The notes below the pieces were generated by a model that was not told the DNA's origin, did no database searches, and was given only the letters and a program-made list of their open reading frames with translations. Shown here in pieces: positions 30,622 to 58,313 of a stretch of DNA of 64,000 bases. The translations under genes and the position numbers were made by a program. How positions within the stretch are numbered: position 1 is the stretch's first letter; each line of letters starts with the position of its first letter. Source of the DNA: Candidatus Heimdallarchaeota archaeon (GTDB taxonomy: Archaea > Asgardarchaeota > Heimdallarchaeia > JABLTI01); contig JABCTZ010000017.1 of the NCBI GenBank assembly GCA_018238155.1, forward strand, positions 32,001 through 96,000. The letters run 5' to 3'.

Positions 30622-33153
30622 ATAATAACTTTAGATAAGGACTATTCGATACAGAATGTTGCATCTCGTTTCTACAAGCAATTTACTGTATTTCGGAGAA
30701 CACTGGCAAACTCTATCAAAAATAATTTTGAAGATACTGAGAAACTCCTTATTGCTCAAAGGATATTCAATAGAATTTTTTTATTATATTTCATAGTAAA
30801 CAAGCATGTGATTAAATGGAAAAACAATCAAATAATTGAGACTAAAGCATTTTTTGAAGTTTTACTCTCAGATGGGGATTTCGTTAATCATCTCTATCTA
30901 ATTTTTGATTTCATACAAACTCCAGGAAAGGAGAAGTTCCATCAAATTGGTGAACAAACGATAAAAATTCCTTTTTTACAAAAAAAGTTGTACCTAAAGA
31001 TCGAAGAAGAAAAAAGAATACTGACAGATTTGAAAACTGAAGATTGGCAAGAAATTCTCTCTTTTCTAAATTCCTTTGAATGGGATTCTGAGGATGGAAC
31101 CAATTATAACTCGATTACACCAGAGATATTGGGTTATATTTATGAAAGAAGTGTTGTTGAATGGGAAGAACAAAAGACGAAAACTTCCAAATCAGTTTCT
31201 TCTCGGAAAAAAAGAGGTGTATTTTACACTCGAGATGAAGTTATCCAATATATCATAAAACATACCTTCTATCCATTGCTTTCTGAAAGATTAGATAATC
31301 GTTACAAGAATCTCATCGATTTTCTGGAGAATGGAAAAAGTGATTATAAAGCAGCTTTTGAAATAATTGATTCTCTAACGATCTTGGATCCTGCTTGTGG
31401 TTCAGGTGCATTTCTCATCAAAGCTGCAGAGGAGCTGTATAAATTTAAATGCACTCTAATGAAGAAAATGGGAGAATCATTTGAAAAAGTGGACTTGAAA
31501 AAAGGAATTATTCTGCACAATCTCTATGGTGTAGATTTGCTTAAAGGTGCAATTGAAATTACAAAATTGAGGTTACACCTCTGGGGCATTACAAGTTATA
31601 CTCAATCTGACGAAATTAATTCTCTGCCAGATATTGAGCATATACTCGAGGGGAATAGTCTCATTGGGAAAATTAAAGACGAGCTTTCCGATATAGAAAA
31701 GAAACCAAATAAAAAACAAGCTACTTTCAAAGAAATTGAAAAACCATTCCATTGGAATACAAATTTCAAGGAAATACTATCAACTAGTGGTTTTGATATA
31801 ATAATTGGTAATCCACCATATGGTGCTTTAATTACTAAAAAAGAACATCAAATTATCTCTGAAGAATATAGTTGCACATCCAGCAATAATACCGCAGAGT
31901 ATTTCCTAGAACGCTCATATCGTTTGCTTAAGGAAAATGGATTCATGGGTTTTGTAGTTCCAAAACAAATAGCGTTTACTTCCAAATGGTGCGATATACG
32001 AGAATTTCTTTTAGAAAAAAGCATTGTGAAAAATCTATTTGATATTGGTTTAGCATTTGAGGGAGTAGACTATGAAGCACTAGTAATAGTAGCAAGTAAA
32101 AGTCTAGATAAGAATGCAATTGAGAATAGCAAAGTACAAATTGATACTGTTAGCAACATAAAAAGTCCAGCCAGTTTAAAAACCCCTCAATTTATTGGAT
32201 ATAATGCACAATGGATGATGCAGTTACATAAGATACTCATATTCAAGTATATCACAGCTTTTGAAGGAAAAATACTTCAAACGGTAAAAGATAGCTCGGA
32301 ATCGTTTGATCAATTCTTTAAGGGGAAATCTTTCAGAGGTGTCTACTTTAATCAAAGTGAAGAGAAACAATTACAAAAAGGAAAACATCTCTACATTCGC
32401 GGTGGCCCATCTATACAAAAACATTATCTAAAAAACATCAAGTATATTCGCTATCCTGAGAAAAGAATCGGTGAACTAGAGAAATTAATGAAACCAAAGA
32501 TAATATTCAAAGCTTTAAGGGGAACACAGTTAGTTGCTTATGTCGATACATTGGGAAGGATTATTTCAGATAGTAACATGAACAATGTCATTTTGAAAGA
32601 TGAATACTCAAGTAGCTTAAAAGCAATGCAATTAATACTCAATCATAAATTAGTTTCATTCTATCTGTCTAAGTTAGTTTTTAGTGAAACAACTGAGACC
32701 GCAAGGCATCTAGATACCCCCTATGTTGTTCCAATACCTATACCAAAGAGAATAGATTTCGATGTTTGTAACAAAATAACAGAGATTCTTCTGTTTTTAA
32801 ATCAGTACTATTTCACGAATTTTCTAAGCAAAAACAGTTCGAATGTTGCAATTGAGACAACAATCAAATATTTTGATAAACTTGCTAAAGTTATCATCTA
32901 CGAGTCGTATTTCAGAGAATTGCTCACAACTAATTTACAAAAATTGCTCAAAACAATAATCTCCATAGATTTTGAGAAATGGTCACAGCTCGAACGATCA
33001 AATAATCTAGCTTCTTCTACCAGTAAAGAAAAGGATGGCATTCTGAAGATTGAAAAACATTACAAAGAACTTTGTGATAACGAAGATATTGAGAGTAATA
33101 TTGACACCACTCTATCACATGAATATGTAAAGTGGATAGAGGATAAAAAGTAA
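30622..33153 (+). CDS. N6-adenine DNA methyltransferase (Eco57I/type IIG-like, no nuclease domain seen)
   Basis: ILGYIYE, GVFYT, DPACGSGAFL, LYGVD, GNPPY, TaqI-C-like TRD; frame extends 62 codons upstream of GTG 30808. Confidence 0.85.
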   Translation: MITLDKDYSIQNVASRFYKQFTVFRRTLANSIKNNFEDTEKLLIAQRIFNRIFLLYFIVNKHVIKWKNNQIIETKAFFEVLLSDGDFVNHLYLIFDFIQTPGKEKFHQIGEQTIKIPFLQKKLYLKIEEEKRILTDLKTEDWQEILSFLNSFEWDSEDGTNYNSITPEILGYIYERSVVEWEEQKTKTSKSVSSRKKRGVFYTRDEVIQYIIKHTFYPLLSERLDNRYKNLIDFLENGKSDYKAAFEIIDSLTILDPACGSGAFLIKAAEELYKFKCTLMKKMGESFEKVDLKKGIILHNLYGVDLLKGAIEITKLRLHLWGITSYTQSDEINSLPDIEHILEGNSLIGKIKDELSDIEKKPNKKQATFKEIEKPFHWNTNFKEILSTSGFDIIIGNPPYGALITKKEHQIISEEYSCTSSNNTAEYFLERSYRLLKENGFMGFVVPKQIAFTSKWCDIREFLLEKSIVKNLFDIGLAFEGVDYEALVIVASKSLDKNAIENSKVQIDTVSNIKSPASLKTPQFIGYNAQWMMQLHKILIFKYITAFEGKILQTVKDSSESFDQFFKGKSFRGVYFNQSEEKQLQKGKHLYIRGGPSIQKHYLKNIKYIRYPEKRIGELEKLMKPKIIFKALRGTQLVAYVDTLGRIISDSNMNNVILKDEYSSSLKAMQLILNHKLVSFYLSKLVFSETTETARHLDTPYVVPIPIPKRIDFDVCNKITEILLFLNQYYFTNFLSKNSSNVAIETTIKYFDKLAKVIIYESYFRELLTTNLQKLLKTIISIDFEKWSQLERSNNLASSTSKEKDGILKIEKHYKELCDNEDIESNIDTTLSHEYVKWIEDKK

Positions 33154-39508: not shown

Positions 39509-40474
39509 ATGATAAATGACAAACAGAGAACCATTATCAAATTTGTCAATGTTTCCAAGAATTTCAGGGAAGTAAAAGCTCTAACTGATGTTTCCTTTGA
39601 AATCAATAGAGGAGATATTTTTGGTTATATTGGTCATAATGGTGCAGGTAAAACAACGACACTGAAGATTTTAGTTGGTCTTATTCGTGATTATTCCGGG
39701 GAAGTATTGATTGTTGGTGAATCACTTCAGAACCATTCTGATTTTAGTAATCTTATTGGATATCTCCCACAAGATGTCGGTTTTCAAGAATGGCGAACAG
39801 TTGACCATGCATTGATAACATTTGGTTTATTATCTGGTATGGGGAAATCTGAATTAACGCAACGCATTCCGGAAATTTTGGAAATGGTTGGTTTAACAGA
39901 AGCTCGTCATCGTAAAATTAAATATCTATCTGGTGGTATGCAGCAGAAATTGAAACTTGCTCAAGCACTCCTCCATGATCCACAAGTGCTAATTCTTGAT
40001 GAACCCTTGAGTGGTTTGGATCCCACTAGTAGGTATCAAATGAAGAATATAATCCGAAAATTGGCTGTAAATAAAAAAACAATTCTCTTTTCGTCTCACA
40101 TTCTGGGCGATGTAGCAGATATTGCTACAACAATTGGTATAATTAAAGAGGGAGTTATCCAGCGCATAGGTACCCCTCTTGAACTCCAAAATGAACTTAC
40201 AGAAGGTGACGCTATTGAGCTTGTTGGTCATAATCTTACAACATCCATTGCAAAAATTCAAGCCCTTCCAAATGTCGAACGAGTAGAGCTAGTTTCAAAC
40301 AATCAAGATCGATTGGTGGTGACCTATTCTACTGGTACAAACGTCCAAGAAGTAACAATTCAATTAATGGCTTTTTTGAGTGAAAATAAAATAGCAATAC
40401 AAAATTTCAATTATCTTAAACCATCTCTAGAACAAGTATATTTGAAATATATGGAAGGAGGTACTTCACATTGA
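39509..40474 (+). CDS. ABC transporter ATP-binding protein
   Basis: GHNGAGKTT, LSGGM, LILDEP, SSH. Confidence 0.95.
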   Translation: MINDKQRTIIKFVNVSKNFREVKALTDVSFEINRGDIFGYIGHNGAGKTTTLKILVGLIRDYSGEVLIVGESLQNHSDFSNLIGYLPQDVGFQEWRTVDHALITFGLLSGMGKSELTQRIPEILEMVGLTEARHRKIKYLSGGMQQKLKLAQALLHDPQVLILDEPLSGLDPTSRYQMKNIIRKLAVNKKTILFSSHILGDVADIATTIGIIKEGVIQRIGTPLELQNELTEGDAIELVGHNLTTSIAKIQALPNVERVELVSNNQDRLVVTYSTGTNVQEVTIQLMAFLSENKIAIQNFNYLKPSLEQVYLKYMEGGTSH

Positions 40475-50052: not shown

Positions 50053-50103
50053 AGAACATCTAAAATACTTTTTATTGTTAATACATAATTAAATGCTGTC
50101 AGA

Positions 50104-50724
50104 TCATTTCGCCATTTCTTGTATTATTTTCTCTATTTCTTCAATACTATAATCATCCATTTTTTTGACTTTAGTGGAAATTTCAGTTATAATCTTCAAA
50201 CTGGAATTTAGGTTTATCATTCTTTGTTGTAATTGTTCTTTTCTTTTTTCATAATGTTTCTCTAAAGCTTGAAGGAATTTCTTTGCCTCTTCTTTTGTTT
50301 TGAATTTCTTCAATTGCTCTATCAAACTCGGTCTCCTGCTATGCCGAATACGTATTAATGGTCTTCGTGTTGGAGGAATAATATCACTTAGGAACGCAAT
50401 TTGATTGGTCCAATCATCTCTTAATTCTCGTAATTTTTCCTTCCCTTGTTCAGTTATTTTGTATAGTTTTTGCGCACGACCCTTGACAATTGCCTCTTCA
50501 GAAGTAATATATCCTTTTTCTTCCATTCCCTTCAATGTTCTATAGACATTCGTTTGTTTTACTTTGTAGTTCTTTTGAAGATCATATCCGGTAATCCCTT
50601 CAGTCTCTTCTGAAATAGTCCATAAGAACACTAATTGACTCATTTCTTTTACCATGCCAGGACCAAAAGGCATAGGTGGTCGAAAATGGTGTTGTTCGTA
50701 AGAACTGTGCCTTTGCTTATTCAT
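50104..50724 (-). CDS. PadR family regulator with long helical C-terminal domain
   Basis: TGYDL, VYRTL..ME..GY, KLYKITE.G..L. Confidence 0.88.
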   Translation of the reverse strand: MNKQRHSSYEQHHFRPPMPFGPGMVKEMSQLVFLWTISEETEGITGYDLQKNYKVKQTNVYRTLKGMEEKGYITSEEAIVKGRAQKLYKITEQGKEKLRELRDDWTNQIAFLSDIIPPTRRPLIRIRHSRRPSLIEQLKKFKTKEEAKKFLQALEKHYEKRKEQLQQRMINLNSSLKIITEISTKVKKMDDYSIEEIEKIIQEMAK

Positions 50725-50763
50725 TATACTTCACCTATACTTTCACAGCTATGCTTTAAAAAA

Positions 50764-50786
50764 AATATCGTCAAATTGGTGATATT
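50764..50786. promoter_or_regulatory. Putative PadR operator 1
   Basis: AATATCGTCAA-A-TTGGTGATATT imperfect inverted repeat, repeated at 51352. Confidence 0.6.
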
Positions 50787-50807
50787 ACCGTTCCTTTTTA
50801 GAAATAG

Positions 50808-50843
50808 TAAAGAACTCATGCTTGGGCTTACACGAGTTCTTTA
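50808..50843 (-). terminator. 13-bp hairpin downstream of the 50893-51315 gene
   Basis: TAAAGAACTCATG-N10-CACGAGTTCTTTA. Confidence 0.45.
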
Positions 50844-50892
50844 GTTTTGACGTGATGTTTTCTTTTGGAGATACTTAACTACTGAAGCGTTA

Positions 50893-51315
50893 TTACTCAT
50901 CCATGTCGATTATTTTCTTATCGTATTCTCGGTGAGTTTTTCTGAGGATTTTTCTCATTTCCCCGGGTGAGTATTCTTCTAGTTTAGTTAGATCCTTTAT
51001 ACTTTGATCAAAAAGTTCATTTAGAATTTCTAAATGTTCCATTCTTGTGTTCAATCGTCTTTTTTGTTTGACCAACATTTTCTTCCGATATTCCAAGTGT
51101 TCTATTGCCTCATCTTTGCTTCCAAGTTCTTCTAGTAGGTCCATTCTCCTACCATGGAACCTTCTGTGTCCAGCCATTGGATGTCTTCCCATTATTGGGT
51201 GTGTTCTCATTCTTGGCGCTTTTCTCATCATATGATGCATTACATGTCTTGGCATATCTTCTGTGCAATCTTGACTGTTTCTTTCTGTGTTTCTTTCTTT
51301 ATGTCTTCTCAACAT
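50893..51315 (-). CDS. His/Met/Arg-rich protein resembling the C-terminal domain of the adjacent PadR
   Basis: HPIMGRHPMAGH repeats; SKDEAIEHLE...L..RM..L aligns with PadR TKEEAKKFL...L..RM..L. Confidence 0.7.
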   Translation of the reverse strand: MLRRHKERNTERNSQDCTEDMPRHVMHHMMRKAPRMRTHPIMGRHPMAGHRRFHGRRMDLLEELGSKDEAIEHLEYRKKMLVKQKRRLNTRMEHLEILNELFDQSIKDLTKLEEYSPGEMRKILRKTHREYDKKIIDMDE

Positions 51316-51351
51316 TTTTCACCATGCTCCTTATAGACACGGTAGTATATA

Positions 51352-51374
51352 AATATATCCAATTTGGTGATATT
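51352..51374. promoter_or_regulatory. Putative PadR operator 2
   Basis: AATATATCCAA-T-TTGGTGATATT. Confidence 0.6.
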
Positions 51375-51469
51375 GCTACAATAAGCATATTGCCAAATTA
51401 TTCACTACTGACCAAAACAGCTGGTGGAACTAGCTTCAATAAAAAAAGAAAAATTAAAATAAACCTTTA

Positions 51470-51898
51470 TTATTGACTTTTATAAAGCTCATCCACTTTT
51501 TTTGCTACTTCTTGAGCAATTATTTCAGCTAATTTCATACCATCATCTCCAATATCCTGTGGAGTGTTAGGAATAAGTTCTGGATGTTGTTTCATAATTT
51601 CCTTAACGTAGATTGTTGCTGTTGCAGGAGCGCTATATCGTTCAACAGCTACTTTTCCACATTCTTCATCACATCCTTCTATTGTGATGGTTTTGTGTTT
51701 CTTAGCAAATTCTCTCTCGGATCCACCACCCTTATGATTAATATCACCCGCCATAAATAATGGTTGACAAATAATTGTGGTAGTGAATGGTCGCAATTTT
51801 TCTACTACAATTCTTGTTGCTACTCGAGTTAATGTTCCTTCTACTAATTTTTCACCACTACAAGCGATTATACCTATTTTTGGTTTTACTGAAATCAT
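51470..51898 (-). CDS. DGC-domain (putative zinc-binding) protein
   Basis: ACSG, C, ITIEGC...C. Confidence 0.85.
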   Translation of the reverse strand: MISVKPKIGIIACSGEKLVEGTLTRVATRIVVEKLRPFTTTIICQPLFMAGDINHKGGGSEREFAKKHKTITIEGCDEECGKVAVERYSAPATATIYVKEIMKQHPELIPNTPQDIGDDGMKLAEIIAQEVAKKVDELYKSQ

Positions 51899-51909
51899 CT
51901 TTTCACCTT

Positions 51910-52314
51910 CTATTCTATATATAAATCATCAACTTTTTCTGCAATATTCTCTGCTAGTTTTCTTGAGAGTACTTTTGCATTTTCACCTAAAATCAAAATA
52001 TCTTTTTCAGGTTTCAAGTCTCGATGTTTTTTGACTATGTCTGTAGACATAAAAACCGCATCAGGTTCTCTAACTGCTACTCGAACATCGGTATATGCGC
52101 ATTTTGCAGTACAACCATCGATGGTGATAATCTTATTTGCTTTCAGAGCATCAATGACTTCCTTCTTTCCTTTAACAATAAGTGGTAGACATTCTATAGC
52201 AGCTTTTTCTGGAGCTAACTCATTAACAACAATATAGGCTGCTTCTCTACACATACCACCAAATGCTTTTCCTATTCCACTACAAGGGATGATGTATACT
52301 TTTTCTTCTGACAT
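51910..52314 (-). CDS. DGC-domain (putative zinc-binding) protein
   Basis: PCSG, CL, ITIDGC...CA. Confidence 0.87.
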   Translation of the reverse strand: MSEEKVYIIPCSGIGKAFGGMCREAAYIVVNELAPEKAAIECLPLIVKGKKEVIDALKANKIITIDGCTAKCAYTDVRVAVREPDAVFMSTDIVKKHRDLKPEKDILILGENAKVLSRKLAENIAEKVDDLYIE

Positions 52315-52327
52315 TTTACTACCTACC

Positions 52328-53191
52328 TTAATTTTCTTCAACAATTTTACGTTTCATATATTCGAAGTATGTTGGACCATCCATTAGGAGTTCCTTATCT
52401 TCTTCAAGAGCTGCTAACTCAATTTCAGCAACCCATCCTTGCTCGTAAGCATCGCCATTCAAAAATTCTGGACTGTTTTCTAGTTCATTATTAACATCGA
52501 TAATATTTCCACTAACTGGTGATATTAATTGGAGTAATGCCTTAACTGATTCAAAATCTGCAACTTCATCAAATTGCTCGATTTTTGTTTCAATCGTTGG
52601 CAAATCAACAAAAATAACATCTCCCGCTTTGTTTTGAAAATAGTCTGTAATACCAACTAATGCTGTTTTTCCTTCTATTTTTGCCCAACAATCATTCTCG
52701 TTAAAATAGTATCCTTCTTTTGGCACACGGAAATGATATTTATCTACGGTAGTTTCTAAATATTCTACACCTACGAATTTTCTCTCTTCCTTTTTCTCAG
52801 TAATTGTGCTTAATTCAGTAATGAATTTTGTAATAATTTCTGCTGCAATTTTCTCTACAAGTTTCTCTCCATCGGTATTGAGTACTAGGTTTTTACCAGG
52901 GCGCAGTTGAAATTTTTTGGTCATATCCGGGATAAAAACTCGTTTGCTGATTTTCTGTCCTTTCGTCTCAGCTAATTTTGCTGCACAACGTGTTGAGCAC
53001 CCATCTATTACAATGATTTTAGCATTCTTTAGAATCTCGTCATATTTTTTTTCATTAGTATTATATAGAACCGGGCAGATTAAATCAATAGAAGAATCCA
53101 TCTCGATTACTTTGATAGATACTTCTCGAGTAATAACTCCAAGTGCTTTATCTAGTCCATTACAAGGTAGTAAACAGATTTTTTTAGCCAT
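52328..53191 (-). CDS. DGC domain fused to glycine-cleavage H (lipoyl-carrier) domain
   Basis: PCNG...C...IDGC..RCA, then W......VGITDY.Q...GD...V.LP, FESVKA (lipoyl-Lys), SPVSG, N.D.Y..GW. Confidence 0.88.
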   Translation of the reverse strand: MAKKICLLPCNGLDKALGVITREVSIKVIEMDSSIDLICPVLYNTNEKKYDEILKNAKIIVIDGCSTRCAAKLAETKGQKISKRVFIPDMTKKFQLRPGKNLVLNTDGEKLVEKIAAEIITKFITELSTITEKKEERKFVGVEYLETTVDKYHFRVPKEGYYFNENDCWAKIEGKTALVGITDYFQNKAGDVIFVDLPTIETKIEQFDEVADFESVKALLQLISPVSGNIIDVNNELENSPEFLNGDAYEQGWVAEIELAALEEDKELLMDGPTYFEYMKRKIVEEN

Positions 53192-53194
53192 TTT

Positions 53195-53500
53195 TTAACC
53201 CTCACCTTTTTTTCTAATTTCTTTAATCAGCGTAACAATTTCCTTTTTGTTGGGGAAGATCAATGCATCTGGTTCACACATTTTCACGCAAGCTCTACAA
53301 AAAACAACGCAATTATATACATTCTTTACAATAAGTTTCTTCTCTTCTTCGTTCCTTTTTTCAAAGACTTTATGGGGGCAGAACTTATCACAATCCATAC
53401 AATAGTTACATTTTTCATAATCTATTGTTGGCCACCAAGGAATCTCTTTTCTTGGTACTCCCATGAAAGTAGCAGTAGTTGCATCATATTTTTTAGCCAT
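53195..53500 (-). CDS. 2x[4Fe-4S] ferredoxin
   Basis: CNYCMDC...CP and CVVFCRAC...C. Confidence 0.9.
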   Translation of the reverse strand: MAKKYDATTATFMGVPRKEIPWWPTIDYEKCNYCMDCDKFCPHKVFEKRNEEEKKLIVKNVYNCVVFCRACVKMCEPDALIFPNKKEIVTLIKEIRKKGEG

Positions 53501-53501
53501 T

Positions 53502-53885
53502 TTATTCATCCTTCTCATGATTTTCTAAGGTTTGCTCAACTAGATTAAATGCTTGTTCTGTAGACAAATCTCTAATATCTAGCGGAATAAGATCTTTCTT
53601 TACATCTAATCCTACCTTTTGAAATGCATCTCGAAAGAGCTTGTATTGCATTGTTGGTGCACAACCTGCTACCATGTATTTTCGTCCTTCCTGTAAGAAA
53701 TCATCAAAAAATCTATCACCATCTTCTTCACAAAGCTGCGGATGAATAAATCCATATTCAACTGGAAGCTCGATACGTACTCTGTTGACAAAGTCCCACA
53801 TATCCATTTTTTCAAATCCAGGGCATTTGCCTGTACAAACACACATTATGAATCCAATCTCTTTTTTATTTGCCATGCGTATCAC
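53502..53885 (-). CDS. Stand-alone HdrA N-terminal-like domain
   Basis: IG...CxC, LC..DG, VAGCAP.....LF, DIR pattern of the HdrA N-terminus. Confidence 0.72.
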   Translation of the reverse strand: MIRMANKKEIGFIMCVCTGKCPGFEKMDMWDFVNRVRIELPVEYGFIHPQLCEEDGDRFFDDFLQEGRKYMVAGCAPTMQYKLFRDAFQKVGLDVKKDLIPLDIRDLSTEQAFNLVEQTLENHEKDE

Positions 53886-53916
53886 TTGGTTCTAGGTAAT
53901 TAAAACACGAGGGTTC

Positions 53917-53940
53917 ATAACAATATTTAAATATTGTTAT
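53917..53940. promoter_or_regulatory. Perfect 24-bp palindrome (putative ArsR operator over a bidirectional TATA box)
   Basis: ATAACAATATTT/AAATATTGTTAT between divergent genes. Confidence 0.75.
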
Positions 53941-53956
53941 ACACTTATTTCGTTTT

Positions 53957-54277
53957 ATGAATGAAAAAAATGAACTACTTCAGTTTAGAGCGAAGATATT
54001 CAAAGCGTTTGCGGACCCTCTAAGACTACATATATTGCAATTCATAGGTACTGAAGAAAAATGCGTTTGTGAAATAATCCCCGAATTAGATGTAGTACAA
54101 CCATTAGTATCTCGACATCTCGGAATCCTTAAGAGAAGTGGTCTCATCTTTGATCGAAAAGATGGAAATAAGCGTTTTTATTCCCTAACAGATATTAGAA
54201 TTCTCAAGATAATAAAAGATGTCACTCCAGAAATGTGTGAAAATTTTTCTTCGTTAATTATTCAGTTATTAACTTGA
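53957..54277 (+). CDS. ArsR/SmtB family metalloregulator
   Basis: FKAFADPLRL.IL, CVCEI, VSRHL..L. Confidence 0.93.
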   Translation: MNEKNELLQFRAKIFKAFADPLRLHILQFIGTEEKCVCEIIPELDVVQPLVSRHLGILKRSGLIFDRKDGNKRFYSLTDIRILKIIKDVTPEMCENFSSLIIQLLT

Positions 54278-54297
54278 AGAAAAAGGAACCAATGAAA

Positions 54298-54855
54298 TTA
54301 TGCTTCTTGCTCTAAAAGATGGAATAAATACGTGAATGCATCTACTAATCCTTTACCAGATTTTGCAGATGTTTTGTAAACAGCCCAATTGATAACAGAG
54401 CTGAGTTGCAATAGACCAAATTTTTGAATAAACTCTGCTCGAGGCATGCACTCGGATAAATCTGCCTTATTTAACAGAACTAGAACTGGTATTCCAATAT
54501 TAATCTGTGTTTCAATTACTTTGTGGAAGACTTCTCGAGATTCTTCGAAATTGCTTTGATCACTACCATCCACGATATATACTACAGCATCCGATTTTTC
54601 ATTTATCTGCGTCCAAAAATTACGGAAACCTGTTTGCCCACCAAGGTCAAATATTTTTAAATGTAAATTTGGAAAATCAATATTATTTATATTAACACCC
54701 ATTGTAGGTATTGTTGTTTTTGAGTCACCGTACATTAGATAATTAATAGTTGAAGTCTTTCCTGCATTGGCTAACCCACAAACTGTCATGTTTGCTTCTT
54801 TTGTTTTTTTACCAAATAATCTTCTAAATATTGACACAGTCACCTTTTCTCCCAA
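54298..54855 (-). CDS. Arf/Arl-like small GTPase
   Basis: N-terminal SIFRRLFG helix, GLANAGKTS, TIPTMG, FDLGGQ, NKAD, TSAK. Confidence 0.9.
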   Translation of the reverse strand: MGEKVTVSIFRRLFGKKTKEANMTVCGLANAGKTSTINYLMYGDSKTTIPTMGVNINNIDFPNLHLKIFDLGGQTGFRNFWTQINEKSDAVVYIVDGSDQSNFEESREVFHKVIETQINIGIPVLVLLNKADLSECMPRAEFIQKFGLLQLSSVINWAVYKTSAKSGKGLVDAFTYLFHLLEQEA

Positions 54856-55159
54856 GTACTAGTTGATAGTAGCAGACTTATTTACTAAGAAAGATTTCTT
54901 TACTTTAAATTTTTTCTGTTAATTGTTGTTCATTAATGTTTTTATCTTCTCTTTTAGACATTTTTTTAGTTTTTTTTTGAATGAAAATTTAATAATATTA
55001 TCTACCGCACAGCACAAGATTTTCGATTGAAGAACAAAATTAAAATAGAGATAGCTTTTGTCTAGCATGATAGGAGAAAAAAACATTCAATCAACCAAAT
55101 AGGAAGAAAAAACATATAAGACACTTCCTAAAAAAGGTTGATGTGATATATTCTCAATC

Positions 55160-55211: not shown

Positions 55212-55781
55212 TTGGTTGATGACAAATTAACTGATATTCGATTTCATGGTCGTGGCGGCCAAGGTGTAGTGACCGCTTCTCGTATTGCCGCAGAAGCAGC
55301 CCTTGCCGAAGATAAATATGTCCACGCCTTTCCAGCTTTTGGTCCAGAAAGAGCCGGTGCACCTATAGAAGGGTTTACTCGCATTTCCTCTGAAGAGTTC
55401 ACTTTAAAAACAGAGATTCACTATCCCGATATAATTGTGATTTTAGATCCAACACTAATCGGTACAGTTAATCTTGGTAAAGGACTCAAAGAAGGGGGAA
55501 TTGTCATAGCAAACTTTGCCGGTTCGATGGACGAGTTAAAGAAAAAAATCGGTATAAAAACCAAAGCCGAATACCATAAAGTAGACGCTACTAAAATTGC
55601 TAACGAAGAATTAGGTAGACCGATTACCAATACTGTTATGCTTGGTGCAATGATCAAAATAACAGATATTGTTGATTTAGATCATGTCTGCAATATAACT
55701 GCTGCGCGATTCCCAGGAGTTGTTGGTGAGAAAAACGTTAAAGCAATTAAAAGAGCATACAAGGAGACAGAAAGCGAATGA
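55212..55781 (+). CDS. porG: Pyruvate/2-ketoisovalerate:ferredoxin oxidoreductase gamma subunit
   Basis: RFHGRGGQG, FGPERAGAP, NT.MLGA. Confidence 0.93.
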   Translation: MVDDKLTDIRFHGRGGQGVVTASRIAAEAALAEDKYVHAFPAFGPERAGAPIEGFTRISSEEFTLKTEIHYPDIIVILDPTLIGTVNLGKGLKEGGIVIANFAGSMDELKKKIGIKTKAEYHKVDATKIANEELGRPITNTVMLGAMIKITDIVDLDHVCNITAARFPGVVGEKNVKAIKRAYKETESE

Positions 55782-56104
55782 GTAAAAATACACTCTCCGA
55801 AAAAGAAATGAAAGAATGGATAGAGCAAAAATGGGGTTATGAAAAATTACCCATGGGCGGATCTGTTCCTTTTGGTGGTTCCTCCATTTACTTCAAAACA
55901 GGTGATTGGAGTCCGTTCAAAGCAGTTGTTGATCGCGAAAAATGTACCAAATGTACTCGATGTTTCTTCCTCTGTCCTGATTCAGCAATAACCATGGATG
56001 ATGGTGGAATTCCGGTAATGGATTTCGATTATTGTAAAGGCTGTGGTATCTGTGCTGAAGAGTGTCCGTCTGACGCTATCGCAATGAAGGACTTGTCTAA
56101 ATAG
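55778..56104 (+). CDS. porD: 2-oxoacid:ferredoxin oxidoreductase delta subunit
   Basis: KTGDW, two CxxCxxCxxxCP motifs, YCKGCGICA. Confidence 0.93.
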   Translation: MSKNTLSEKEMKEWIEQKWGYEKLPMGGSVPFGGSSIYFKTGDWSPFKAVVDREKCTKCTRCFFLCPDSAITMDDGGIPVMDFDYCKGCGICAEECPSDAIAMKDLSK

Positions 56105-56114
56105 GTGATTACTC

Positions 56115-57311
56115 ATGACTAAAGCATCAATTACCCCTGGTAAAAGAGTAGGTATGACTGGCGACGAAGCTGTTGCTAATTCTATGGCAGTTATTAACCC
56201 TGATGTGGTTGCCGCTTATCCTATTACCCCTCAAACAATTATTGTCGAACATTTCAGTGACTTTGTCAATGATGGTGAAGTAGACACCGAATACATTACT
56301 GTAGAATCTGAACACAGTGCCATGAGCGCTTGTGTTGGTGCAAGTGCAACCGGTGCACGAGTCTTTACAGCCTCTGCCAGTCAAGGTATCGCTTTAATGT
56401 ATGAAATTCTCTTCATTGCTTCTGCCTCAAGATTACCTATCGTTATGGCTGTTGCAAACAGAGCATTAAGTGGTCCAATTAACATTCACGGTGAATTAAC
56501 AGATCAAACCGTCTGTCGAGATACTGGTTGGATTTCCATGTTCTCTGAATCTGCTCAAGAAGCATATGATGCAGGATTCATTGCTTTCAAAATTGGTGAG
56601 CATCCTGATGTATCTTTACCAGTTATGTACGGTCTTGATGGGTTTATTATAACCCATGCTCTCGAGGGTGTTTATCCTCTTGACCGAGATTTCGTTAAAA
56701 AATATTTACCAGAACGTGAGATGGTTCATCCAACAGTTCCTGGCAACCCAGTTTCATCTGGTCTACTTGCTCTCCAAGATTATTATATGGAAGTAAAGTT
56801 CCAGCAAGAAATTGCTATGGATGCTGCCCGTAAAGTAATTCCAAAAGCCTTTGAGGAATTTGGAGATTTAACTGGTCGCTATTATAAGAGTGTTGAAGAG
56901 TACCAAATGGAGGACGCTGAAGTCGCTTTTGTAACCATGGGTGCGTTAGCTGGTACAGCAAAATATGTTGTTGATAAGCTTCGCAAAGATGGCGAGAAAG
57001 TTGGTATGTTGAAAGTGAAAACCTTCAGACCATTCCCAGAAGAAGATTTGGCTAAAGCTTTGAAAGGTATTGAAACAATCGGTGTTATTGATCGTGATCT
57101 TACTTTTGGAGCACCAGGACCAGCTCTATATACTGACATTAAAACAACACTTTATGACCACAAAGAACGTCCACAAGTGCTTGGTTATATTGCAGGCCTT
57201 GGTGGAAGAGATGTTGCACAAGATGAATTCAACTACATCTACAAGCAGATGCTTAAGAATAAAGGCGCTGAAAAATCCGTTCCAGTAGAATGGGTCGGTC
57301 TTAGAAAGTAG
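56115..57311 (+). CDS. porA: Pyruvate:ferredoxin oxidoreductase alpha subunit
   Basis: AYPITPQT, VESEHSA, NRA, GLGGRD. Confidence 0.93.
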   Translation: MTKASITPGKRVGMTGDEAVANSMAVINPDVVAAYPITPQTIIVEHFSDFVNDGEVDTEYITVESEHSAMSACVGASATGARVFTASASQGIALMYEILFIASASRLPIVMAVANRALSGPINIHGELTDQTVCRDTGWISMFSESAQEAYDAGFIAFKIGEHPDVSLPVMYGLDGFIITHALEGVYPLDRDFVKKYLPEREMVHPTVPGNPVSSGLLALQDYYMEVKFQQEIAMDAARKVIPKAFEEFGDLTGRYYKSVEEYQMEDAEVAFVTMGALAGTAKYVVDKLRKDGEKVGMLKVKTFRPFPEEDLAKALKGIETIGVIDRDLTFGAPGPALYTDIKTTLYDHKERPQVLGYIAGLGGRDVAQDEFNYIYKQMLKNKGAEKSVPVEWVGLRK

Positions 57312-57326
57312 GAGGCATGAAAGAAA

Positions 57327-58313
57327 ATGACTTCATCCGAAGAATTAAAGAAAGTAAGAATTCCACCCGCAAAGGAATTAATGAAATTAAAAGATCGCTT
57401 GGCTCCTGGTCACCGATTGTGTGCAGGTTGTACCGCTGGTACAATTGCTAGATGCGCTACATTGGTTACAGATCCAGAAGATGTAGTAATATTCCATGCA
57501 ACAGGTTGTTTGGAAGTCGCTACAACTGTCTATCCATTTACTGCTTGGCGAGTTCCTTGGTTCCATAATGCTTTTGAAAATGTTGCTGCAACCGCAAGTG
57601 GTGCAGAAGCCGCTTATCGCTCAATGGTTAAGAAAGGCAAACTAAAGAAAGTACCAGACATCATTGCTTTTGCCGGTGATGGTGGAACATACGATATTGG
57701 TTTACAATCTCTTAGCGGAGCACTTGAACGTGGACATGATTTTGTATACATTTGTTACACAAATGGAGCATACATGAATACTGGTATTCAACGTTCTGGT
57801 GGTACACCTATGTATGCTGCTACAACAACTTCTCCAGCTGGCAAAGTTATTCCAGGTAAAATGGAATGGCGTAAAGATCTAGTAGCAATCGCTGCTGCTC
57901 ATAAAATTCCTTATGTTGCAACTGCTTCTCCCGCAGATCATAGAGATATGATGACCAAAGTTCGAAGAGCATTGGATGTGGATGGTCCGGCATTTCTTTT
58001 AATAGATATGCCATGTCCAAGAGGTTGGCGATTCCCTGAAGAAAAATCAGTTGCAATAGCAAAACAAGCGATTGACAATTGTTACTTCCCATTATACGAA
58101 ATCTACGATGGACGTGATTACGTTCTAAGTAGAATGAGTAAAATGATTGCTAAAAAACCCGAAAAGAAAGTTCCTGTTGAAGGCTACTTGAAAGGGCAAG
58201 GACGATTCAAACATCTCTTCAAACCCAAAAAGAGAGATGATTTGATTGCATTGTTCCAACAAGCAGTTGACCAAGAATGGGCTCATCTTCAGAAACTAGT
58301 TGAAATGTATTAA
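57327..58313 (+). CDS. porB: Pyruvate:ferredoxin oxidoreductase beta subunit
   Basis: GH..CAGC, TGC, GDGG..DIG, YMNTGIQRS, PCP.GW. Confidence 0.94.
   Translation: MTSSEELKKVRIPPAKELMKLKDRLAPGHRLCAGCTAGTIARCATLVTDPEDVVIFHATGCLEVATTVYPFTAWRVPWFHNAFENVAATASGAEAAYRSMVKKGKLKKVPDIIAFAGDGGTYDIGLQSLSGALERGHDFVYICYTNGAYMNTGIQRSGGTPMYAATTTSPAGKVIPGKMEWRKDLVAIAAAHKIPYVATASPADHRDMMTKVRRALDVDGPAFLLIDMPCPRGWRFPEEKSVAIAKQAIDNCYFPLYEIYDGRDYVLSRMSKMIAKKPEKKVPVEGYLKGQGRFKHLFKPKKRDDLIALFQQAVDQEWAHLQKLVEMY

Follow-up and report, generated by a model that had tools for sequence, protein, structure and literature searches.

The DNA analyzed here, referred to as the window, is a 64-kb stretch (positions 32,001 to 96,000 of contig JABCTZ010000017.1) of a Candidatus Heimdallarchaeota genome, in which the region 51470–54277 contains a minus-strand operon of five small genes and, opposite to it on the plus strand, a divergent gene for a repressor of the ArsR family. 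As read from the listing of open reading frames (ORFs), the operon runs from a protein akin to the N-terminal domain of HdrA (HdrA-N), through a 2x[4Fe-4S] ferredoxin and a fusion of a DGC domain to a GcvH-type lipoyl domain (DGC-GCV_H, hereafter the DGC-H fusion), to two further DGC proteins, denoted DGC2 and DGC3. These five genes are collectively referred to as the cassette, and the features of the region are as follows (aa, amino acids).

53502..53885, minus strand: gene for the HdrA-N-type protein, 127 aa
53195..53518, minus strand: ferredoxin gene, 107 aa
52328..53191, minus strand: DGC-H fusion gene, 287 aa
51910..52344, minus strand: DGC2 gene, 144 aa as the longest ORF; the likely true start, judged from orthologue alignments, is M11 at 52314
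51470..51898, minus strand: DGC3 gene, 142 aa
53957..54277, plus strand: arsR, 106 aa, monocistronic in the window
53917..53940, no strand: perfect 24-bp palindrome, ATAACAATATTTAAATATTGTTAT, putative ArsR operator
51432..51469, minus strand: T-rich tract right after the DGC3 stop codon, read from the sequence

Taken as longest ORFs, the operon genes overlap by up to 17 bp or else lie 3–11 bp apart; with the starts favored by orthologue alignments, such as M11 of DGC2, the gaps come to 1–13 bp, as had been stated in the preliminary description of this DNA, which spoke of five tightly packed genes. The divergent CVC-type ArsR and the perfect palindrome between the two transcription units, reported in the same description, are both present. 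The T-rich tract at 51432–51469 is probably an archaeal terminator that marks the end of the operon and, because it follows the last stop codon, the operon would comprise five genes. No glycine-cleavage P, T, or L subunit, arsenite pump, or ArsC was found among the ORFs of at least 100 aa listed for positions 40000–64000 of the window, for which family assignments cover positions ~50100–54900 only; within this range, the earlier observation that such genes are absent from the vicinity holds.

Neither Pfam nor NCBIfam gives a match for the 127-aa product of the first operon gene. Its relatives are free-standing proteins of approximately 110–135 aa and make up a small family, represented by 102 clusters at E <= 1e-3 among 1.8 billion representatives, in which cysteines C15, C17, C52, and C75 are conserved and C21 mostly so. 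The AlphaFold model of the protein, with a predicted local distance difference test (pLDDT) score of 92.5, superimposes on the N-terminal domain of HdrA with Z scores of 11.4–12.9 and root-mean-square deviations of 2.4–2.6 Å over 117–119 residues (VIA), covering approximately residues 2–141 of the HdrA chain. The clear structural matches are exclusively HdrA chains (Foldseek E 2e-5), with the next, unrelated fold appearing at Z 8.6 (VIA). The profile of the family also retrieves HdrA by sequence (9sfi_A, E 3e-6, residues 5–104; 5odc_A, E 0.006), and in the profile alignment, the CxC motif and the cysteines of "LC..G" and "AC.P" match HdrA cysteines. The "HdrA-N domain" label given to this gene at the outset is thus borne out by both the fold and the profile: the protein corresponds to the cluster domain at the N-terminus of HdrA and lacks the FAD/thioredoxin-reductase body and the ferredoxin domains. 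By analogy with the HdrA structures, from which cluster binding is read, it is a putative [4Fe-4S] protein. The adjacent 107-aa ferredoxin matches Fer4 and Fer4_10 of Pfam above the cut-off and is of the 2x[4Fe-4S] type, with all eight cysteines (C37, C40, C43, C47, C70, C74, C77, and C81, in the pattern CxxCxxCxxxCP plus CxxxCxxCxxxC) conserved in 45 orthologues.

The third gene encodes a two-domain protein in which residues 1 to ~95 form a DGC domain (Pfam E 4.9e-16) and, behind a linker, residues ~156–281 form a GcvH-type lipoyl domain (GCV_H, PF01597; E 1.4e-32). The lipoyl lysine K217 within the ESVKA motif, for which an intact state had been claimed, is invariant, together with C10, C65, and C69, in 16 diverse sequences at 45–57% identity. 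The genome encodes three GCV_H proteins, of which the canonical gcvH lies directly before gcvP on contig C15 and is 39% identical to the fused H-domain. The latter scores 107.1 against the GcvH equivalog TIGR00527, below the cut-off of 115.85, and 118.1 against the GcvH subfamily model, just over the cut-off of 117, and its start carries an added conserved segment, DKYxFRVPK...YFNENDCW. As read from these sequences, the fused H-domain is an extra paralogue rather than the glycine-cleavage H-protein; the score under the equivalog cut-off and the separate gcvH-gcvP pair both place it outside ordinary glycine cleavage. The third GcvH-like gene, on contig C19 (locus L006, 1459–1899), encodes a 146-aa protein with ETGKY in place of ESVKA and precedes two genes that, by eye, resemble class I fumarate hydratase subunits. 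Three genes of the LplA/LipB type are present in the genome, none of them in the window, and the best lipoamide-dehydrogenase-like gene reaches 324.7 against an equivalog cut-off of 408.8. The DGC-GCV_H architecture is widespread, with 767 relatives of similar length and both domains present in all 120 of those listed; the named carriers include Loki-, Thor-, Heimdall-, Hel-, Hermod-, and Jord-type Asgard archaea as well as Bathyarchaeia, and the public labels read "glycine cleavage system protein H" or "putative zinc-binding protein." Among the plasmids of PLSDB, the fusion was found in none, the matches being to plain gcvH only.

To our knowledge, the DGC family (PF08859) has no known function, and NCBI labels it as zinc-binding. 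The three DGC domains of the operon score 59.1, 50.3, and 39.0 bits against a Pfam cut-off of 27, with E values of 2.7e-13 for DGC2 and 8.8e-10 for DGC3. In DGC2, residues C21, S22, G23, G25, K26, R33, C52, D76, G77, C78, and C82 are invariant, and in DGC3, the invariant cysteines are C13, C44, C76, and C80, so that each of the two proteins holds four invariant cysteines, a Ser-Gly after the first of them, and one arginine, all invariant. The DGC2 model (pLDDT 90.6) adopts a flavodoxin-like alpha/beta fold with the four cysteines at the C-terminal ends of strands 1–3 and at the start of the next helix, a position that in such a fold would correspond to the usual cofactor site. Foldseek searches of the PDB with the DGC model gave no match at E <= 0.001, the weak rows being SIS domains, flavodoxins, and low-molecular-weight (LMW) arsenate reductases at template modeling (TM) scores of 0.3–0.4; a wider structure search (VIA) returned 3pu6_A as the best match at Z 9.1, followed by generic alpha/beta folds and no clear solved relative; a search of the Atlas recovered the DGC family itself only; and a sequence search of the PDB found no match. 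Homology of the DGC and HdrA-N-like families was considered but is not supported by profile comparison, with an hhalign probability of 2.5%, even though the cysteine columns align. In several Acidobacteriota loci (L057, 11279–11977; L066; L075; L082; and others), the third DGC gene is longer, approximately 232–247 aa, with only the first ~95 residues matching DGC and the C-terminal half belonging to no Pfam family.

The genes for DGC2 and DGC3 are adjacent, often overlapping, and occur together in most loci with enough downstream sequence, and their complex was modeled, as had been suggested earlier for proteins of this operon, with both proteins supplied as alignments. The prediction is a heterodimer, with an interface score (ipSAE) of 0.79 (0.80, 0.79, and 0.75 in the individual runs) compared to 0.00 for the best of three controls; the runs share at least 85% of the contacts, and the partner pLDDT is at least 87. 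The mark set for ipSAE is reached by 58 of 80 solved complexes and by 2 of 110 mismatched pairs, a calibration that is only rough for alignments of our own. The predicted interface is formed by the cysteine loops (residues 20–25, 50–55, and 80–83 of DGC2 and residues 12–18, 44–51, and 78–84 of DGC3), including a predicted contact of Cys52 of DGC2 with Cys80 of DGC3. The models thus support a DGC2–DGC3 heterodimer in which two Cys4 sites would lie face to face, a geometry that would suit paired clusters or dithiol/disulfide chemistry between the subunits.

The 106-aa ArsR matches HTH_5 (PF01022) with E 1e-11 and 45 bits, compared to a cut-off of 22, and scores 78.8 bits against a cut-off of 55 on NF033788, the NCBIfam model of the general metalloregulator family. 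The alternative assignments to TsoR and BigR were rejected, both models scoring below the cut-off (for BigR, 42.5 bits vs 155). The protein carries C-V-C in helix alpha3, and nearly all ArsRs adjacent to the cassette in other genomes have C-[VAGQ]-C in this helix. In ArsR/SmtB proteins that sense metal(loid)s, a C-x-C motif in alpha3 provides the thiolate site, and both features of this family, the thiolate sensor motif and a palindrome at its own promoter, are present here. The 24-bp palindrome is perfect, with 0 matches in 100 shuffles, and lies within the 71-bp arsR/operon intergenic region, where 16 bp separate it from the arsR ATG on one side and 31 bp from the start of the first operon gene, taken as the longest ORF, on the other. 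Its core, TTTAAATA, resembles an archaeal TATA box that the repressor site would overlap and, given the distance of 16 bp from the arsR ATG, a bound repressor would block both divergent promoters. The palindrome occurs once in the 4.08-Mb assembly when up to 3 mismatches are allowed, with no second copy at this tolerance and none at the ars locus of the genome itself.

The same palindrome is kept with at most one mismatch in seven related loci (L018, L028, L031, L035, L037, L038, and L040), invariably at a distance of 12–16 bp from the arsR start. The rest of these 20-kb loci contains no further copy; in particular, there is none at the acr3-arsR pair of L037. The cassette proteins of the palindrome-sharing loci are approximately 52–55% identical to those of the window, with one close relative at 93%. 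Retention of a non-coding palindrome between genomes whose cassette proteins have diverged to this extent argues for a functional ArsR operator, and the visible ArsR regulon in this clade consists of arsR and the five cassette genes. The earlier proposal that ArsR controls the operon accordingly gains in weight, in that the palindrome appears to behave like an operator, at the same position in seven related loci.

To assess the conservation of the cassette, we scanned one genome per species, which yielded 72 loci, and called and clustered the ORFs; clusters that recurred were turned into hidden Markov models and given names from Pfam. The gene order HdrA-N, ferredoxin, DGC-H, DGC, DGC is kept across the 72 loci, which span archaea and at least six bacterial phyla: 31 loci are archaeal-type, including two contigs labeled bacterial, and 41 are bacterial, from Acidobacteriota, Bacillota, Actinomycetota, Armatimonadota, Dehalococcoidales, and others. 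Among the Bacillota are the cultured carriers Eubacterium callanderi, E. limosum, E. aggregans, and Acetobacterium fimetarium. The locus L018, labeled Candidatus Heimdallarchaeota, encodes a fusion protein 93% identical to that of the window. In five neighborhoods built from called genes, the arrangement is always a 123–132-aa protein, ferredoxin, DGC-H, DGC, and DGC; a divergent ArsR accompanies four of them, with none seen in L014, and the genes often found beside the cassette are those for DUF5714 and an LplA-type ligase, or for DUF166, extra DGC proteins, and LplA. Searches for operon conservation and for the DGC plus GCV_H architecture, both suggested at the outset, thus uphold the co-occurrence of these genes in a fixed order. 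DGC itself is present in 79 of the 301 sampled genomes of the phylum and in six of the nine other genomes of the genus, a patchy distribution that fits an accessory module.

Arsenic-resistance genes recur among the neighbors of the cassette in these loci. ArsR is present in 48 of the 72 loci, and 12 of the 31 archaeal and 20 of the 41 bacterial loci (32/72 altogether) encode at least one of Acr3, LMW-type ArsC, ArsM-type methyltransferase, ArsA, and ArsD in the fetched flanks, which extend up to 10 kb on either side. In several Acidobacteriota (L066 and L087), the cassette forms one co-directional string with arsM, arsC, acr3, and arsR. Given that an ars locus occupies far less than 1% of a genome, such co-location would lie far above chance. 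An LplA gene neighbors the cassette in 21 of the 72 loci (18 of the bacterial ones), Thioredoxin_3 in 13/41 bacterial loci (14/72 in all), DsbD_TM in 13/41 bacterial loci (18/72 in all), DUF166 in 14/31 archaeal loci, and an unnamed 97-aa CxC protein in 18/31 archaeal loci; genes for CDF, chromate-transporter, HlyD, and RND-type proteins recur in some bacterial loci. All these counts are lower bounds because the contigs are short and the ORF calling is crude in high-GC genomes. The ~97-aa protein, which contains a C-A-C motif and has no Pfam match, is co-transcribed, along with an extra DGC gene, with arsR in the 18 archaeal loci (e.g., L022–L034); neither gene is found in this window. The two contigs with bacterial labels, L023 (Nanopelagicaceae) and L041 (Deferrimicrobium), carry an Asgard-type cassette at 51–57% identity and Asgard-type neighbors (the 97-aa protein [u97], acr3 with an 84-aa gene, and DUF166), and look like misbinned archaeal contigs.

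In the genome under study, the ars locus lies on contig C10 (40096–42633; L090, 6097–8634) and consists of acr3 (393 aa), a divergent gene for an ArsM-like methyltransferase (264 aa), and an ArsR of 148 aa that has a C-N-C motif and an N-terminal CC. An LMW-phosphatase/ArsC-type gene is located on contig C4, so that a replacement of ArsC by the cassette, which we considered, is not needed here. No arsenite pump, reductase, or methylase is linked to this copy of the cassette, and because the ars locus is on a separate contig, the arsenic link for this copy rests on homology with other genomes.

We did not find a published description of the cassette in a literature search on the DGC domain, ars operons, and lipoate/GcvH, and a preprint on the SAO system and papers on selenoproteomes make no mention of DGC or GcvH. 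As far as searched, then, the five-gene cassette is new to the literature and no publication on a counterpart was found, in agreement with the initial remark that no characterized system has this composition. The closest systems are the sHdr-LbpA sulfur oxidation pathway, the thiol-coupled ars operons, HdrABC, and GcvH, and the cassette misses a defining feature of each.

The reading that we favor, with about even confidence, is that of a module freed from ArsR repression and directed at arsenicals or similar thiophilic metalloids, whose DGC core, working with a tethered lipoyl arm, would receive electrons from the ferredoxin and the HdrA-N-like protein. In this scheme, the divergent CXC-type ArsR would repress the operon by binding the palindrome over its TATA-like core and would come off in response to a thiophilic metalloid, for which arsenite or a related arsenical is the likeliest candidate. 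The operon would then yield a soluble redox module, in which the ferredoxin and the free HdrA-N-type domain would carry low-potential electrons and pass them to a cysteine-rich catalytic core made of the DGC2–DGC3 heterodimer with its facing four-Cys sites. The third DGC domain would be tethered to the lipoylated H-domain, whose swinging dithiol arm would visit the core, and the dihydrolipoyl group and the DGC cysteines, kept reduced, could bind, reduce, or hand on arsenicals. Such a module would in effect be a ferredoxin-driven counterpart of the thioredoxin-coupled ars steps. The constant presence of two electron carriers suggests redox chemistry rather than mere chelation, and the dedicated ligase suggests that the lipoyl group is essential. 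We infer that Fe-S clusters are bound, that the H-domain is lipoylated, which way the electrons flow, and what the effector and the substrate are; the candidate reactions are a dithiol trap kept reduced, the reduction of arsenate or of pentavalent methyl- or thio-arsenicals, and the donation of As(III) to ArsM or Acr3.

The cassette can be compared with classical ars operons, in which ArsC is coupled to thioredoxin or glutaredoxin and ArsD serves as a metallochaperone. Both have a CXC-type ArsR, in a divergent or leading position, with a palindromic operator, and small Cys-rich proteins, and the cassette is often co-located with acr3, arsC, arsM, and arsA/arsD. However, all five cassette proteins fall outside the known Ars families, the copy in this window is not linked to any ars structural gene, and the NADPH/thioredoxin input of the classical operons is contrasted by the ferredoxin/Fe-S proteins and the lipoyl group proposed here.

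Several observations weigh against the scheme. Near this copy of the cassette there is no ars gene, the ars locus on the other contig having a different ArsR and no operator, and with two ArsR paralogues in the genome, the effector here could differ from arsenite. Across the wider set, 40 of the 72 loci have no recognized ars gene in the fetched flanks, and the CDF, chromate-transporter, and RND neighbors may reflect a general metal-stress context. Classical ars chemistry also offers no role for the Fe-S proteins, as arsenate can be reduced without low-potential electrons. As to the lipoyl arm, even the closest LplA of the genome shares just 32% identity with the ligase that accompanies the cassette in relatives, and no DUF5714-LplA unit stands beside ArsR; a search of the genome for DUF5714 gave no match, a weak result because the positive controls also remained without a match. 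The DGC domain bears the NCBI zinc-binding label and has no solved relative, and the DGC2–DGC3 complex is a prediction, not a measurement. Of the redox relay envisaged in the preliminary description, what stands are the conserved unit, the CXC-type ArsR, the operator, the H paralogue, the LplA genes of relatives, and the ars genes in 32/72 loci; the arsenic link in this genome is by analogy only.

A more specific version of the arsenical scheme, which we consider doubtful, is a ferredoxin-driven, lipoyl-dependent arsenical enzyme system in which DGC2–DGC3, with its two facing Cys4 sites as Fe-S or dithiol centers, would perform an HdrB-like reduction on a substrate presented by, or resolved through, the dihydrolipoyl arm. 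Where oxygen is strictly absent and thioredoxin scarce, arsenate and pentavalent arsenicals of the methyl or thio type would be possible substrates. HdrB contains two facing non-cubane clusters, which the predicted facing Cys4 sites of DGC2–DGC3 recall, by analogy only, and the 127-aa protein has the fold and the cysteine pattern of the HdrA N-terminal cluster domain. In contrast to HdrABC, however, the cassette has no flavin for electron bifurcation and no coenzyme M/coenzyme B context, and profile and fold comparisons relate DGC neither to CCG domains nor to HdrA-N.

Among the explanations that dispense with arsenicals, we regard as unlikely a sulfane-sulfur or persulfide relay of the sHdr-LbpA kind, in which the lipoyl arm would carry sulfane sulfur or polysulfide to the Fe-S/DGC core and ArsR would sense reactive sulfur. 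In the sHdr-LbpA pathway of sulfur oxidation, an Hdr-like complex works with lipoate-binding proteins that resemble GcvH and are served by a lipoate ligase of their own. Both systems have an extra GcvH-type lipoyl carrier outside glycine cleavage and an Fe-S element derived from Hdr, and an LplA-type ligase is found nearby, which for the cassette holds in relatives although not in this window. In approximately five Loki-type loci (e.g., L025, L034, L042, and L063), the cassette is adjoined just downstream by a convergent gene cluster for YeeE-type (Sulf_transp), TusA, and DsrE/DsrH-like proteins, the ArsR has a weak BigR match, and partial matches in sequence runs come, weakly, from cold-seep and sediment metagenomes, no RNA run being listed for this DNA. 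Yet this sulfur cluster is convergent, not co-transcribed, and confined to one lineage, arsenic genes are much commoner as neighbors, and the BigR score falls far under the cut-off, the conserved C-x-C in alpha3 being a metal(loid)-type site. Moreover, the cassette and its surroundings lack HdrB and HdrC (CCG) subunits as well as an HdrA body with FAD; HdrB1, B2, C1, and C2 (CCG) were found neither in the operon by Pfam nor among the annotated conserved neighbor families of the 72 loci, the whole genome not having been searched. The cassette further differs from sHdr-LbpA in that its carrier is fused to DGC, two more DGC proteins are obligatory, the FAD/thioredoxin-reductase body is absent, the context is one of ArsR and ars genes rather than sulfur oxidation, and Radical-SAM/SPASM genes occur in only 6 of the 72 loci.

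Equally improbable, in our estimate, is a general thiol or soft-metal stress module, that is, either a disulfide reductase driven by ferredoxin or a group of Cys4 proteins that buffer Zn, Cd, or Hg, induced in either case by any thiophilic metal or by disulfide stress. CXC-type ArsR/SmtB sensors of other systems are generally known to answer Cd, Pb, Zn, and Bi as well; DGC is annotated as putative zinc-binding in public records; CDF, chromate-transporter, HlyD, Thioredoxin_3, and DsbD_TM genes recur in the bacterial loci; and in this genome, the cassette has its own regulator apart from the ars locus and a gene for a His/Met-rich protein just downstream. Nevertheless, acr3, arsM, arsC, and arsA/arsD are the most frequent specific neighbors, and a pure metal buffer would need no lipoyl carrier, ligase, or two electron-transfer proteins in fixed order.

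The remaining alternative, a housekeeping ferredoxin:dihydrolipoyl-H oxidoreductase that would replace the L-protein in glycine cleavage/synthesis or serve another lipoyl enzyme in anaerobes, draws on the H-domain score just over the GcvH subfamily cut-off, the retained ESVKA lipoyl site and GCV_H domain, the lipoamide-dehydrogenase-like gene under its equivalog cut-off, and a pyruvate:ferredoxin oxidoreductase operon 1 kb away, but is very unlikely in view of the canonical gcvH with gcvP elsewhere in the genome, the differences of the cassette H-domain from GcvH (its position behind a DGC domain and not by gcvP or gcvT, the score under the equivalog cut-off, and the extra N-terminal segment), the control by a metalloregulator, the embedding in ars operons in bacteria, and the patchy distribution of DGC.

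Beyond the cassette, the operon region is neighbored by a gene for an Arf-family GTPase (Pfam), which, along with the 93% identical fusion protein of L018, places the window in an Asgard archaeon. Directly downstream of the operon, at positions 50104–51315 on the minus strand, are the genes for a 140-aa protein with a His/Met/Arg-rich N-terminal tract, whose His/Met residues could bind soft metals, and for a 206-aa PadR-family regulator. On the other side, approximately 1 kb past arsR, a four-gene operon of the por type, encoding a 2-oxoacid:ferredoxin oxidoreductase, occupies positions 55212–58313 on the plus strand (by eye from the translations); it would offer a local source of reduced ferredoxin, and its adjacency to the cassette is probably coincidental.

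This window adds the sequence-level relationship of the first cassette protein to HdrA-N and the predicted DGC2–DGC3 interface, and its copy, free of ars genes and equipped with its own ArsR and a clean, conserved operator, is a simple case for finding the inducer. The cassette is also directly testable, given that cultured carriers exist (Eubacterium callanderi, E. limosum, and Acetobacterium). If the arsenical reading is true, it would assign a first function to the DGC family, to the free-standing HdrA N-terminal module, and to the widespread DGC-GcvH fusion, and a lipoylated protein, normally the victim of arsenite, would join the defense alongside low-potential iron-sulfur proteins. Strict anaerobes from Asgard archaea to Acidobacteria and acetogens would then share an unrecognized way of handling arsenic-like poisons.

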